DNA from: a plasmid
Direction: 5' to 3' (one strand)
DNA length: 64,000 nt
Assembly (NCBI RefSeq): GCF_057098645.1
Contig: NZ_JBXSPU010000002.1
Made by a program: the position numbers. Of the stretch, positions 24,001-30,000 are shown piece by piece (position 1 is the stretch's first letter; every line of letters starts with the position of its first letter).

Positions 24001-27000
24001 ACTGTGGGAAGAGTTCAGGGGGCTGGGGTGGACGTTCAGCACGCCAACCAAACTTTCGACCAGTTACAGGCTGGTTCGGGCGGTAAGCATGCGACTTCGG
24101 GCATGGGTACTATCAGCGACAAACTGAATAATATGTACGGAGATAACCAGATACGCGGTATATCAGGCAACCTCCCGAATTATTTTGGCAGGATTGCAAA
24201 TGATCCTACCAAAAAGCCGGATGACAAACGTGCGGAACTGGCCGCACAAGCTGTGTTTACCTATGGCGCCAGTACAATGGCAACCGGCGCTGAGAAAGAA
24301 CAACTGAAAGCGGATACTCAAAATATCCTCTCCGAACTGAGTCACTATAACGTTCGCTGGGGGATGAACGATCTCCAGAATATCCATGAAGGTTTCAACA
24401 TGCATAACAAGGCTTCAGGTTCTCTTGACTCAGTTGTGAGGGCGAATCTTGGGGAAGGTGGTTCTGGCGGCGGGCTCGTTGGGCAACGAACCCAAACCAC
24501 GACGGATCTCCTTGTTGGTAATAAAATTGAGTCCAATACAGAACGTGGTGTTATTGGTAGTACGCTTTTATCGGGGCAGGAGAGTGTTGCCAGAGGACTT
24601 GACGTTATCGGAGCTAAACCTGTAAACGACATGCTCTCAGGTATGGGTATCCTGACCACCCCTTCATCTTTGGCAAACGATGCTTCGAATCCACAAAATA
24701 TGCCGAGCTCGCTATTGGGCAAGGTTGGAAATCACCTGCAAATGTCAGATGGTGTTAGCGAGGTGACCAGCAGGTATAAGGATATGGGGGGGGATGGGAT
24801 CAAGGCGTATGAGACTGCATCACAAAACTCAGAACGTGCGATTCGTCAGCAACTGACCGATGATCCACGTTTTGGGCCGGATAAAGCAGATGCATTCGTG
24901 AGCTTTATGAAGTCAAACCTGAATAATACAAATGAACCATATCAGTCGAGAATTGAGAAAGCTAAAAGCTGGCTGAATGAAAATAAGAAGTAAAAGTAAG
25001 TAGTAGCTGATAAAGGCCGTACTCTCTTTTGAGTACGGTCTTTTTTTGCTTGCATCACCCTGATTCAAATTTCCTCACCAAATACAGGTCACCCGGCACA
25101 CTAAGAAAATGTGCATTTCTTCTGTTCAAAATGAAAATTGAGAGAAAAGTAACTTTTCTGAATCGACTGATGCTTTAGTGCCTAGGCCATAGCGCATCAG
25201 AGGCTTTGGTTGTATGGAGGGTGTGGAAAAGTTACTTTTTCAATAAAAGCGGGTCATCAGCACATTATATCTGGCTATCAGGTCCGTTAGATCCTTTTCA
25301 TTAACCCCGGTGTAATAATCTGTACGAAACAGGTGCGGGTACTCTGGAGGAAACAGGGTCGCATCGTCATCAAGGCAGATAAAGGCTTTTACTTTGTGTC
25401 TGGTGACGAAGTCCTCACATTCAGCTGCACGGACTCCTATACTTCCTGAGGGGAGATACAGGGATGGGGTTGCTCCAATTACCCTGTCTCTGTATGGCGA
25501 GCGGAAAAGTGACTTTAGGTAAGTGATACTGCCGCACTCTCTCCATGAGCTTGATATAACGATGAACATTGAAGGACTCGCGTCAAGTAACCTCTCAATC
25601 AAATGCATCCTCTCGAACGATTCATTCTGACATTTGTGGACTACACCATCAAAATCCAGGAAAAGAACAACATGGATTGATGGCAGAGGACCCCATAATC
25701 CAGCGGTTATTTCTTCATGAGACAATATTCCATCCACGTCTTTATTTTTGGGCAGCTGCGGTGAACTGCATAAATTGAACAGGAATTTATAAATTGACTG
25801 GAGCATCGTTAACCTTTTTCTCAGGACGTTTTCATTCTCTAAGAGCCGCATTGTTTATGGCTACGAAACAACTAATAAAAAATTGGAGAGTAGGGTCGTA
25901 TTTTATTCAGGAAGATTTTTTACAATATGCCCGTTGTACTGGGGCTTAGGTTGCGTCCACTGATATAATTCGTCCATTCCATTTCGGCGCTGAATCCGGC
26001 GATTGTATTTGATCATGAAGTTGAAGATATACGTCGCCCGGACCTTAGGGGTTTTGCTGTTGTAATCGGCAATCCCTTCAAATACGTTACCCTTCCGGTC
26101 AACAATCTTCCGGTAAAGCCACCAGGTGCCCACCCAGAAACTGGCACAGGCGTCATAGGCCAGCACCCGCCACGTAACAGACGGAAAATGGTCGCGTATT
26201 TCCGGCAGGTTGGACGAATTGATCTGCATAGGCCCAATATCATAAGTGCCATTTTTATTACGGCTGAACGTCCCGACTTTTCCGCCCTCATTATCAAAAA
26301 GCGTAAAGACCAACTCCGCATCAATCCCGAAAAAACGGGAGGCATCGGTAATGCACTGCGTGTAGATCTCAACAGGAACGGGAATAGGTTTCACATCGTC
26401 TACTGGTGGTATAAACACGAGATAATCTCCGCTGGAATTACGTTCTGGATATTCTCCCATATCGTCGTCAAAATTTTTTTTGCTATAGGGGGGAATTTTT
26501 CCCCTTAAGCGAATTAGGCAGATTTTTTCGCATGATAGTATTAACACTCCATTAAAGGAGCTGAAATGAATAAGACTATCAAGGCATCATTATTTTTACT
26601 GGCATCCTGTACGGCCTTGAGTATGAATGCCCAGACAGCGAACACTGACGTGCTTCCCGATGCTGCACTGAAGAAATTAAGAGAAGTGGGCTTGTCTATC
26701 GAGCATATTGAACCATCGCCGGTAAAAGATATTTATACCGTCATTTCAAGAGAGGGCGTGAGCTACGTCAGCAAAGATGGCGATTACATTTTCACCGGGA
26801 GCTTGTTTCATGTGAACGGGAAAGATGTGGAGAACACAACTGAGCAGGCTATTCTGAAAGGTGTCAGGGAGTTCGCCACTAAAACAAAATCCATCGAATA
26901 TAAGTCGGCGAATGAAAAATACCGTCTGGCAGTGTTTACGGATATTACATGCGGCTTTTGCCAGAAATTGCATCAAGATCTTCAATCCTATCTCGACGCC

Positions 27001-30000
27001 GGGATCTCAATCAAATTCCTCGCCTTTCCACGTGCAGGTCTCAACTCCGTTGTCGCGGGGAATATGGCAAAAATATGGTGTGCGGCAAAACCTAATGATG
27101 CACTGGATGCCGCAATGAGCCCGACATCAACCATTCCGGAAGGACGGCCTGACGAGGCCTGCCTCGATACCATCAAATCGCATTTCCAGGTAGCTTCAAC
27201 TATTCCGCTTCAGGGTACGCCAACGATGGTAACGCTGTCGGGGAAACCTCAGCTATTCACCGGTTGGATGAGCCCGGAAAATCTGGTGACCCGCATGGGT
27301 GCCGAACAAAAGTGACTTTCCACGACTGCAAGAGGTGTTTATGAAATCTGCAATACTGACAACGTTAATGCTGGTGGCGGTTGGTTCTCAACCCGTCTTT
27401 GCTGCCAAATGCCAGTTCGGGGCCTGCGACGCCGACACTGTGGCCAGCAGTGAGATTCTGGTATCTGCTGCTCAGACAGATAAAGACGCAGTTTTAAAAA
27501 AACTCAATGATGCGACATCCCGCAGCGACGTGATGTCGAAACGGTTTGAGTCGTATCTGAGCAATGACAGGTTAAAGGTGAACACCGACAGTACCAAGAA
27601 AGGCCCTAGCAATGAAATCGCTAAGCCGAGGGATGAGTTGGCGCCGGTAAGGCAGCTGAAAGCCATTCGCCCCGAGCTGGTACAAACACCCATCTTCCAG
27701 CCCATTGTTGCGTTCTATGAACGTCTGGCCTGAGTGCGTCGCTGGGGGTTAGAAGATGTCGCTTTGGCTCAGCATTGTCACCCGGGCAACGGGATTGCCG
27801 GATAAGCGGTATTTAAATGATCCGGTGATCCTCCGTTATTACCAACAAAAGATCCAAAAGGCTCCTTACGCCCTGGTGGGATGGACTCTCTGTTTCATGG
27901 CAACCATTGGTGTGTCGCTGGGACTGGATCTTTCCAACCAGATGTTACTTCTCGTTCTGCTGATATTGATCTTTCTGATGGTGGTGCTCCAGGGGCGGTA
28001 CCAGTTCATGCATCCGGAAAGATGTATCAATGCCAAATTTTACCAAACGGTGCTGGACGATGCGTCAGTCTCAGATATTCAGAAAGCTCAGTTTGAATAT
28101 CTCTTCGTGACCAAAGTGGATGAGCTGACCATCGGTGATCTGTACCGACTCTATGATTTCAACAGAGGAGGCCGGTAAAGACGTGGCATGCAGGTGAGAA
28201 AAGTTAATTTGTGGTTGGTCGTTACAGTGCCGGTCATCAGTTCCAGGGGACCGAGGCGACGTAGTTTCCGGAGCGCAGCGGGGCATCCAGATTCCCGGTC
28301 AAAGCGTCAATCATTGCGGAATACGCCACGCTGTCCGATGGGATCGGCGCATTGCTCTGCATACTGACTTTAAGCACCTGCTGTGCATTTTTTCCCGCAG
28401 GGTAGACTTCCACATCAAGACGACGCCAGAAATGTCTTTGTGATACCGTCTCTGTTCCTACGATCCCACTGACCGGCTTATAGTCATAGTCCGTCTCAGT
28501 TTGCCCGTGCTTATCTTTTCGCGTTGTTTTCTTCTCGATAACATATCCGGTTATTCCCGTCACCGGTAGTTCACTGTATTGCAGATTCTCCTGGGTCTTG
28601 CTGTAACTGAATCTGAGAATATATTCGGGCTGATGGCTGGAAATATTAAACCCCTTACCCGTTAATCCGCTCGCAAACCGGGCTGCAAACATTCGCGACT
28701 GAATACTGTCATCCGGAGCAACAATTTCAAATTTCTTGCTGCCTACCGGGCGGGGCAGTAAATCGTACGCATCAACGTCATTTCCAAAATGATAACCGCA
28801 TCCACATAAGAACGTTGTGGCTGTTAGTAAGAAAAATTGCCGTAACATTCTAAATCCTCCAAAAAGGGTTCTTTAATGAATAATTCCGATTTACCGTGCC
28901 AGTATAATCGAACGCAGGCTGATAACTAACAAGTTGAAATGCGTAAAGGTGGCTATGATTAAATTAAATTATTTAAAACCCGTGGCGTCTGTTTTAATTT
29001 CTGCGGTGATTGCGACGGCTGGCTCTGTGTATATTACGTCGAAATATCTAAAACCCGATGTACCGGGTAACGACGAAATAGGACGAGTGGCTGCTTCCTA
29101 TCTGGTAAAAAATCCCCAGTATCTTCTCGAAGCAGGTAAGGCGCTAGAAAAAGAAAATACTAACGCTTCCCTTGAGCGGATTATCCCCTACGCACCGGCA
29201 CTCTTCGAGACCAAAGAGACACCCAATATCGGACCTGATAATGCGGCCGTCGCTGTTATTGAGTTTTTCGACTACCAGTGTCATTTCTGTATGCAGGTAG
29301 CGCCGGTTGTTGAATCTGTGTTGAGCCAAAGCACTGATGTAAAGTTCTTCTTTAAAGAATTTCCGATCTTCGCTGGCTCAAAACCCGTTTCCGCAATGGG
29401 GGCGGCGACAGGCCTGCATGTGTATCAGACATTCGGTGCGGAAGCGTATCGTAAGTATCACAACAATCTGATGACCAGTGCGTATGTATTCTTCAACAAC
29501 CAGCGTGCGTTTACACTCAATGATTTAGACATGGTTGTGAACAAATCCGGGTTCAACAGCTCATTCGGCGATCGGGAGAAAAGCCGCTATGAGAACGTTA
29601 TCTCCGGAAACATGCAGCTGGGGGAAGCTCTCGGGATTAACGGTACGCCAGGGTTCATTATTATGAACATGCAAAAACCCGACGCTGCAACGACGTCATT
29701 CATCCCGGGCGCTGTTGACGAGGCCACCCTGAAATACGCAATCCAGAAGGCCCGTGGAGGCTAAAGTTACTTTTCCTTCCGAAACTGGCCATGCCGGGTA
29801 ACACCGGCATGAACGTCAGGCTTTGACGACAAGTAACTCATTCCAGCGAGTGGTATACCGTGGGGACAGCATGGCCTGCTTCCCCCGGAAATCCTGATGA
29901 ATCCCTTCGCAAGCCAGAAACAGAGAGCCTCGATGCTCTTTGTTAAACCGATCCATCACCTTCATCAGTGCTTCACTGCCTCGCCTGGCGGGACGTTCAT

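Follow-up and report, generated by a model that had tools for sequence, protein, structure and literature searches.

The region analyzed in this study is located on a plasmid contig (NZ_JBXSPU010000002.1; RefSeq assembly GCF_057098645.1), of which a stretch of 64,000 nucleotides, in the following called the window, was used. The window derives from an IncHI1 plasmid of the R27 type, and the interval under study comprises the R27 open reading frames (ORFs) R0130 to R0135, whose proteins are identical to those of R27. It is situated just 3′ of the Tra1 genes trhF, trhH and trhG (R0126–R0128) and encodes a predicted lytic transglycosylase (R0130), a DsbC-type isomerase (R0131) and a DsbA-family protein (R0135). 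Together with the adjoining gene R0129, R0130–R0135 probably represent an accessory envelope module, which is expressed with the conjugation genes and helps to build the F-type mating apparatus. The gene set has long been annotated in R27, one of its members has been characterized, and the helper hypothesis has been published before. Details added here are the predicted BcfH/ScsC type of R0135, the transglycosylase without a leader peptide, and the extent of the co-regulated block, which covers seven genes including one for a lipoprotein with a predicted TraT/PelC-like fold.

The 5 kb surrounding the interval were 100% identical to many plasmids of 190–300 kb from Escherichia coli, Salmonella, Klebsiella and Citrobacter. 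Among the 300 records matching this 5-kb region, 213 showed an identity of at least 99%, and the one matching plasmid that was opened, pYPE10-190k-tetX4, is typed as IncHI1A, MOBH and MPF_F. Counting plasmid records only, there were 299 matches, 212 of which reached at least 99%. R27 carries the same genes in the same order and under the same RefSeq accessions (WP_000470506, WP_001044069, WP_000833502, WP_000061015, WP_000945974 and WP_000593841). For the block R0129–R0135 there is no difference to R27, the window being a newer, resistance-carrying relative of R27 and not R27 itself. The R numbering is borne out by the gene tables in Gibert et al. 2020 (R0126 is trhF), where R0130 is listed as "bfpH, trbN-like protein", R0131 as "dsbC, thiol:disulfide interchange protein" and R0135 as "dsbA, outer membrane protein".

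Gene map and boundaries of the block

The following features were assigned in the window:

18544–19590, plus strand: trhF (R0126), TraF-like periplasmic thioredoxin-fold protein (Pfam TraF, E 2.9e-50)
19580–20995, plus strand: trhH (R0127), named trhH in RefSeq (Pfam TraH, E 2.7e-59)
21004–24993, plus strand: trhG (R0128), 1329 amino acids (Pfam TraG_N, E 6.4e-30)
25012–25043, plus strand: hairpin resembling an intrinsic terminator, with a 13-bp stem and a subsequent T run, located right behind the stop codon of trhG (terminator scan)
25240–25851, minus strand: R0129, HAD-domain protein (Pfam HAD_SAK_2, PF18143, E 2.2e-22)
25903–26418, minus strand: R0130, candidate specialised lytic transglycosylase of the TrbN clade, 171 amino acids from the most likely start (NCBIfam and PDB matches)
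26419–26565, no strand: intergenic region between the divergent genes R0130 and R0131 (gene map)
26566–27315, plus strand: R0131, dsbC(R27), predicted DsbC type (DsbC_N and Thioredoxin_2)
27341–27733, plus strand: R0132, predicted secreted protein of 130 amino acids, signal peptide followed by C-x4-C
27756–28178, plus strand: R0133, predicted membrane protein of 140 amino acids with two hydrophobic segments (hydrophobicity scan)
28237–28848, minus strand: R0134, predicted outer-membrane lipoprotein (lipobox Cys17, Gly at +2)
28849–28954, no strand: divergent promoter region between R0134 and R0135 (gene map)
28955–29764, plus strand: R0135, DsbA-family oxidoreductase of predicted BcfH/ScsC type, 269 amino acids (Pfam DSBA)
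29816–31075, minus strand: mucB, umuC-type Y-family polymerase (RefSeq), right-hand boundary of the module and outside it

A sequence-only reading of this DNA had placed genes for a lytic transglycosylase, a DsbC-like and a DsbA-like protein immediately after traG. All three genes are real, but they neither form one operon nor are they contiguous with trhG: The transglycosylase is encoded on the opposite strand, and both the terminator-like hairpin, which sets the trhFHG operon apart from the helper genes, and R0129 come first. Three further genes of the interval (27341–27733, 27756–28178 and 28237–28848) had gone unmentioned. On the right-hand side, the genes mucB and mucA (umuC/umuD) run from 29816 on the minus strand.

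The intergenic region 26419–26565 presumably holds the promoters of both R0130 and R0131. No sigma-70 consensus site was found within it, and the sigma-70 scan was no richer in sites than shuffled controls. A shared operator motif was searched for by comparing the two divergent intergenic regions with the upstream regions of trhF, oriT, AC, AN and Z (11-mers, up to one mismatch); as only A/T-rich matches were obtained, this candidate was rejected.

Co-regulation, synteny and selection

In a derepressed htdA mutant of R27 at 25 °C, the genes R0129 to R0135 were up 19.5-, 20.6-, 13.0-, 8.1-, 10.3-, 6.0- and 6.0-fold, respectively, and trhF, trhH and trhG 27.3-, 13.3- and 7.7-fold (PMC7366339). 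The induction has a sharp edge at mucB, for which 1.5-fold (1.47) was reported, with 1.3-fold for mucA (PMC7366339). These published arrays show that the seven-gene block is co-regulated with the tra genes. In wild-type R27, expression of R0129, R0130 and R0135 was 3.1- to 3.8-fold higher at 25 °C than at 37 °C (3.4-fold for R0135), and it was proposed that the "muramidase" (R0130) and the disulfide protein (R0135) may promote transfer (Gibert et al. 2020).

A core consisting of the transglycosylase gene, a divergently oriented DsbC gene, one or more genes for small proteins and the gene of the BcfH-like enzyme is found close to the 3′ side of traF-H-G in four lineages, i.e., IncHI1, IncHI2, IncHI1B/FIB plasmids of Klebsiella and a Photorhabdus contig. 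The genes flanking this core vary among the lineages (an HNH gene, a helicase gene, umuDC), and in IncHI1B traG is separated from the module by unrelated genes including the helicase gene. The seven genes of the block are all intact in IncHI2, with nonsynonymous divergence (dN) of 0.07–0.5 against saturated synonymous divergence (dS), which shows purifying selection on the block. The lowest value between IncHI1 and IncHI2 was obtained for R0130 (dN 0.066, dS saturated), compared to 0.086–0.099 for TrhH and TrhF.

The lytic transglycosylase R0130

The longest ORF of R0130 extends from 25903 to 26547 on the minus strand. The start at 26547 is not conserved. Since the IncHI2 ortholog has stop codons in the stretch upstream of the position equivalent to GTG 26418, and since GGAG is located 8 nt before this GTG or its equivalent in both IncHI1 and IncHI2, GTG 26418 is most likely the true start, from which a protein of 171 amino acids is obtained.

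R0130 matched the NCBIfam models TrbN (E 4.9e-21) and IagB (E 8.3e-13), and its best solved relative in the PDB was the type III secretion enzyme EtgA (E 3.5e-8). Both the Pfam SLT score (19.1 bits versus 21.3) and the TrbN score (75.7 versus 246 bits) were below the curated cutoffs. A protein annotated as TrbN likewise reached just 20.0 bits on Pfam SLT, and the sub-threshold score of R0130 is therefore a property of the clade. The catalytic E44, the motif G62-P-M-Q-I-N67 (GxMQxN) and Y119-N-S121 (Y-x-S) align to the motifs of EtgA, and E44, Q65, N67 and Y119 are invariant across 17 homologs. By these motifs and matches, R0130 is assigned to the TrbN/IagB/EtgA clade of specialised lytic transglycosylases. 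The designation "P19-like" given to it earlier fits at the superfamily level only, as BLASTP against the P19 homolog Orf169 of F returned E 0.27 at 19–22% identity.

R0130 and its orthologs from IncHI2 and Photorhabdus showed neither a Sec signal peptide nor a hydrophobic N-terminus; the R0130 product of 171 amino acids starts with MFIPPVDDVKPIPVPVEIYTQC, a sequence without hydrophobic leader. The IncHI1B ortholog, which is 66% identical and occupies the same syntenic position, has a classical signal peptide and begins with MTRLFFGAVLFATLTVNANA, after which the mature protein starts with AFNPPPD. Comparison of the N-termini (L007:8890-9504, L006:9127-9666, L012:9302-9853, L014:1456-2226 and L015:1453-2052) showed that the IncHI1, IncHI2 and Photorhabdus proteins start exactly at the mature N-terminus of the IncHI1B ortholog. 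The leaderless forms have in common a short motif, (D/x)(L/I/M)PP, which precedes the conserved cysteine. A signal peptide hidden behind an upstream start or in another frame was considered and rejected on account of the upstream stop codons in IncHI2 and the lack of signal-like sequence in the other frames.

Proteins annotated as TrbN that are encoded by one IncU and one gonococcal plasmid are leaderless, too, and TrbN of pCTX-M3 is tabulated without a signal peptide (PMC6112013). AtlA, an unrelated protein of the gonococcal F-like type IV secretion system, is leaderless and yet required (PMC6365954). Orf248 of Rts1 was considered as a further essential leaderless transglycosylase and dismissed, because it has a classical signal peptide and is a transglycosylase of another type.

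The DsbC-type isomerase R0131

For R0131 the designation as DsbC-like isomerase was confirmed. The protein matched the Pfam domains DsbC_N (E 9.5e-15) and Thioredoxin_2 (E 3.6e-16) and E. coli DsbC (1eej, E 1.4e-37), and it comprises a signal peptide, a dimerisation domain, CGFC at 129/132 (CGYC in E. coli DsbC), the Thr-Pro loop (GTP) and a second cysteine pair (C172/C199). With 179.6 bits it falls short of the 215-bit equivalog cutoff for chromosomal DsbC, so that it is regarded as a diverged plasmid paralogue and not as an ortholog. TrbB of F, DsbP of IncA/C plasmids and HtdT of R27 were compared as further plasmid isomerases, of which DsbP matched at E 4e-10 only. By its predicted features, R0131 is a periplasmic disulfide isomerase of the DsbC type, namely the dsbC(R27) studied in Elton et al. 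2005.

The sequence-only reading had suggested transfer assays in host dsb mutants. For dsbC hosts such an assay is in print for one of the three genes, i.e., dsbC(R27): According to PMC10838148, its deletion from R27 caused a 10,000-fold drop in transfer, which occurred only in a dsbC-null host. The same source gives a 10-fold drop for trbB of F, again only without host DsbC.

The DsbA-family protein R0135

R0135 contains the Pfam domain DSBA (PF01323, E 2e-23) with CHFC at 109/112, and among its homologs the CxxC motif and the Thr-Pro are invariant. The best solved relative by sequence was BcfH of Salmonella (PDB 7jve, E 1.5e-35 over residues 39–268). An AlphaFold2 model built with 28 homologs had a mean predicted local distance difference test score of 85.5 and consists of a hydrophobic helix (7–31), stalk helices (39–83) and a confident catalytic domain. 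In a Foldseek search with this model, BcfH ranked first (E 4.2e-19, TM-score 0.71), followed by trimeric ScsC proteins. The top 36 matches comprised BcfH, ScsC and atypical DsbA-like proteins (Francisella DsbA1, Wolbachia alpha-DsbA1 and DsbA2, 3gyk), and E. coli DsbA was not among the top 50. Also, none of the NCBIfam DsbA models matched R0135. The domain ScsC_N (PF18312) was detected weakly (20.6 bits versus the cutoff of 25.8) and is recorded in many homologs. By sequence match and predicted fold, R0135 is assigned to the BcfH/ScsC-type enzymes and not to the classical monomeric DsbA proteins.

BcfH and ScsC (of Proteus and Caulobacter) share with R0135 a helical N-terminal extension before the DsbA-like domain, the CxxC motif and the Thr-Pro. 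They differ in context, as R0135 is located among conjugation genes, whereas BcfH is associated with fimbriae and ScsC with copper, and BcfH has CSWC instead of CHFC as active site. BcfH is described in the literature as a trimer with dual oxidase and isomerase activity.

The N-terminal hydrophobic segment of R0135 has a length of 21 residues (21–23 in plasmid-borne relatives), and in some of these relatives it is followed by a polar linker of 25–45 residues. More distant homologs possess short, typical signal peptides. The longer segment and the linker of the plasmid relatives, set against the short signal peptides of distant homologs, make a membrane tether for R0135 plausible. R0135 also has an A-T-A cleavage site before G, which would fit a cleaved signal peptide. 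Of the earlier description as a membrane-anchored DsbA-like protein, the DSBA domain and the hydrophobic helix are retained, and the helix may be either an anchor or a cleaved signal peptide.

Orf206 of Rts1 is a homolog of R0135 (E 5e-7, 23% identity), in which the DsbA domain is preceded by a hydrophobic N-terminus and a linker. As stated in PMC10838148, more than 100-fold of Rts1 transfer depends on Orf206, even in a dsbC+ host.

A solitary R0135-like gene was observed on the IncFIA/FIB plasmid NZ_CP054225.1, together with mobI and trhR-like remnants and bounded by IS1. Solitary copies on IncF plasmids were considered as a separate genomic context and rejected, as they are deletion remnants of IncHI Tra1 DNA bounded by insertion sequences.

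Cysteine-rich clients and recycling partners

The sequence-only reading had named cysteine-rich TraH and TraG as presumed substrates. TrhG does not fit this description, since it has 4 cysteines in 1329 amino acids (residues 164, 180, 190 and 249). TrhH contains 8 in 471 amino acids, of which 6 are present in the mature protein. Rich in cysteine are TrhN (32 in 1058 amino acids) and TrhU (16 in 350 amino acids). Their genes belong to Tra2, which is not covered by the window, and Tra2 probably also supplies the main clients.

Four periplasmic proteins with a CxxC motif are encoded on R27, namely TrhF, R0131, HtdT and R0135. The thioredoxin-fold nature of TrhF noted earlier was supported by the NCBIfam model TIGR02740 (TraF-like; 353.8 bits, cutoff 232) in addition to Pfam, and its CQFC is found at residues 182/185. 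The gene htdT is located in Tra2 of R27 between trhB and trhV, outside the window. At its annotated position (32115–32867 of the R27 locus L004, minus strand, 250 amino acids, CDGC at 118–121), HtdT had no Pfam match with E < 0.01 and no obvious signal peptide, although it is named as protein-disulfide isomerase; a wrongly annotated start or a very strong divergence of the sequence may be the reason.

Across the R27 annotation no gene carries the name DsbB, DsbD, CcdA or ScsB, a result that refers to product names, with many R27 genes being annotated as hypothetical. R0133, the only membrane protein of the block, has no conserved cysteine. Because no DsbB/DsbD-type gene is annotated and host DsbC can stand in for dsbC(R27), the plasmid enzymes are probably recycled by host partners.

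Further genes of the block and its surroundings

R0129, located 3′ of R0130 on the same strand, has the HAD domain known from "Swiss Army Knife" RNA-repair proteins and no signal peptide. In three IncHI lineages (IncHI1, IncHI2 and IncHI1B), homologs occur in this region. The protein looks cytoplasmic in IncHI1 and IncHI2, and the IncHI1B homolog has an N-terminal hydrophobic segment. In R0132, the C-x4-C motif (CQFGAC) directly follows the predicted cleavage site of the signal peptide. It recurs in the IncHI2 ortholog and in an IncHI1B protein of 103 amino acids encoded between the DsbC-type and DsbA-type genes, and R0132 could be a substrate or a partner of the Dsb enzymes. R0133 is lineage-restricted, a search of 1.84 billion representative proteins having given just 17 matches. 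A function as redox partner of the DsbB/DsbD type was considered and rejected, since the two cysteines of R0133 are conserved neither in the IncHI2 homolog nor in the Photorhabdus homolog (29% identity) and the family has just these 17 representatives.

R0134 combines its lipobox with a confidently predicted fold of the DUF4136/PelC/TraT type, which resembles PelC, the surface-exclusion lipoprotein TraT of F, DUF4136 and LptE. It might form rings as an accessory protein of the mating apparatus, or it might be a factor of the exclusion type. Its identity with the exclusion protein EexB was ruled out, since the latter corresponds to R0016, a gene of the Z operon in Tra2. The modules of IncHI1B and Photorhabdus lack R0134, and that of Photorhabdus lacks R0132 as well, so that both are regarded as accessory. 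On the IncHI2 plasmid NZ_CP110989.1 (locus L006), the homologs of R0134 (6686–7297 of the locus, plus strand) and R0133 (7357–7779, minus strand) are truncated in RefSeq to 122 and 86 amino acids. The full-length ORFs of 203 and 140 amino acids are intact, so that this is a start-site annotation problem and not gene decay.

Two observations concern other parts of these plasmids. Outside the window, R27 carries a gene for a lipoprotein of 290 amino acids (4082–4954 of locus L004, plus strand) directly beside trhN. The surface-exclusion lipoprotein Sfx of IncC has 286 amino acids and is encoded beside traN (PMC11493245); the two are likened by position and size alone. Within the window, an ORF of 1111 amino acids (33062–36397, plus strand) lies beyond mucAB and encodes a hypothetical protein conserved in R27.

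Proposed function and alternative explanations

Derepression in the manner of the tra genes, the synteny with traF-H-G and the dsbC(R27) phenotype argue for R0129–R0135 as conjugation helpers. In this respect the sequence-only reading was borne out, with an induction of 6- to 21-fold in the htdA mutant and the conserved position in four lineages. In the mechanism proposed here, the block would be expressed under the control of HtdA/TrhR/TrhY. R0130 would presumably open the peptidoglycan locally for the secretion channel, and R0131 would act as a dimeric periplasmic isomerase that reshuffles wrong disulfides. R0135, probably oligomeric and at or near the inner membrane, would most likely serve as an oxidase/isomerase. 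Likely clients would be the cysteine-rich proteins TrhN, TrhU and TrhH, and not TrhG. The plasmid enzymes would add capacity and specificity to the host system and would probably need host DsbB/DsbD for recycling, so that each of them would be partly redundant with its host counterpart.

Several points weigh against this proposal. R0130 has no signal peptide that would account for its access to the peptidoglycan. The temperature response of R0131 in wild-type R27 was only 1.5-fold in the published array. The closest characterized relatives of R0135 have their function in fimbriae (BcfH) or in tolerance to copper (ScsC) and not in conjugation. The absence of DsbB/DsbD from R27 rests on annotation names, many genes being annotated as hypothetical. 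In PMC10838148, the R27 transglycosylase is described as not analysed and the function of R0135 is stated as unknown, and no experiments on R0130 or R0135 were found in the accessible literature.

The alternative that the plasmid enzymes and TrhF make up a self-sufficient disulfide system, independent of host Dsb proteins and dedicated to TrhH and TrhG, corresponds to what the sequence-only reading had called the plasmid's own periplasmic disulfide machinery. It draws on the four periplasmic CxxC proteins of R27 and on the ability of R0135-type enzymes such as BcfH to both oxidise and isomerise. It is nevertheless quite unlikely, as R27 has no annotated gene named for a recycling partner of the DsbB/DsbD type (nor for CcdA or ScsB), the cysteines of R0133 are not conserved, and TrhG as a supposed dedicated client is poor in cysteine. 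Overproduction of TrhF, moreover, reportedly failed to compensate for Dsb defects. Plasmid and host DsbC are redundant, the deletion of dsbC(R27) having a phenotype solely when host dsbC is absent as well (PMC10838148). Alternatively, the genes could be a general cargo for envelope or host fitness, in which the Dsb proteins serve other plasmid or host functions, such as copper or oxidative-stress tolerance (as ScsC) or the folding of large plasmid-encoded immunoglobulin-like surface proteins or fimbriae (as BcfH), and the adjacency to Tra1 is incidental. That BcfH, from a fimbrial operon, and ScsC are the closest solved relatives of R0135, that R0135 and R0131 are expressed at 37 °C, too (signals of 425 and 464), and that RSP has 9 cysteines would agree with this explanation. 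RSP, however, takes part in conjugation itself (PMC8730810), derepression covers the entire block together with the tra genes up to the sharp boundary at mucB, and the core has kept its place beside traF-H-G in four diverged lineages that differ in their flanking genes. Given also the conjugation phenotype of dsbC(R27) (PMC10838148), we consider the cargo explanation unlikely.

Two alternatives refer to the missing signal peptide of R0130. The protein could be a cytoplasmic relic without a role at the peptidoglycan, which lost its signal peptide in the IncHI1/IncHI2 lineage; the hydrophobic N-terminus is lacking in R0130 and in the IncHI2 and Photorhabdus orthologs, and the IncHI1B ortholog has a classical signal peptide. 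Yet R0130 is the most conserved protein of the block, with a dN below those of TrhF and TrhH, its catalytic glutamate is invariant, and its gene is induced 20-fold (20.6) alongside the tra genes. The leaderless state is also shared by the annotated TrbN proteins of the IncU and gonococcal plasmids and by the tabulated TrbN of pCTX-M3, and the leaderless AtlA is required by its secretion system, all of which makes a relic very unlikely. R0130 might otherwise reach the peptidoglycan in a Sec-independent manner, by export through the type IV secretion system or docking onto it, or might even be delivered to the recipient; we hold this to be unlikely. The conserved proline-rich N-terminal peptide with the (D/x)(L/I/M)PP motif would then be the recognition element. 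A parallel for such an export is FlgJ, which is exported through the flagellar apparatus.

Related systems and significance

The N-terminal cysteine, the catalytic glutamate, GxMQxN and Y-x-S of R0130 are shared by TrbN (IncP/IncU), by IagB, IpgF and EtgA of type III secretion systems and by P19/Orf169 of IncF plasmids. TrbN proteins as annotated resemble R0130 in their short, proline-containing N-terminus without signal peptide, whereas Orf169 of F has a signal peptide and its gene adjoins traM/oriT. EtgA and IagB also carry signal peptides. A transglycosylase together with several thioredoxin-fold proteins, encoded beside the mating-apparatus genes in differing positions, is likewise found in Rts1 (IncT), SXT, ICEclc and ICEAfe1, of which Rts1, SXT and ICEAfe1 are F-type systems and ICEclc is a different, atypical one. 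The transglycosylase of Rts1 (Orf248), having a signal peptide, is of a type other than R0130. ICEclc possesses one transglycosylase and four thioredoxin-fold genes with mild deletion phenotypes, and ICEAfe1 carries trbN-traF-traH-traG plus dsbG and dsbA. With F and R27 included, this combination is documented and common in conjugative elements.

IncHI plasmids spread resistance to multiple drugs, colistin and tigecycline. Accessory envelope genes needed for IncHI transfer could point to targets for blocking conjugation.

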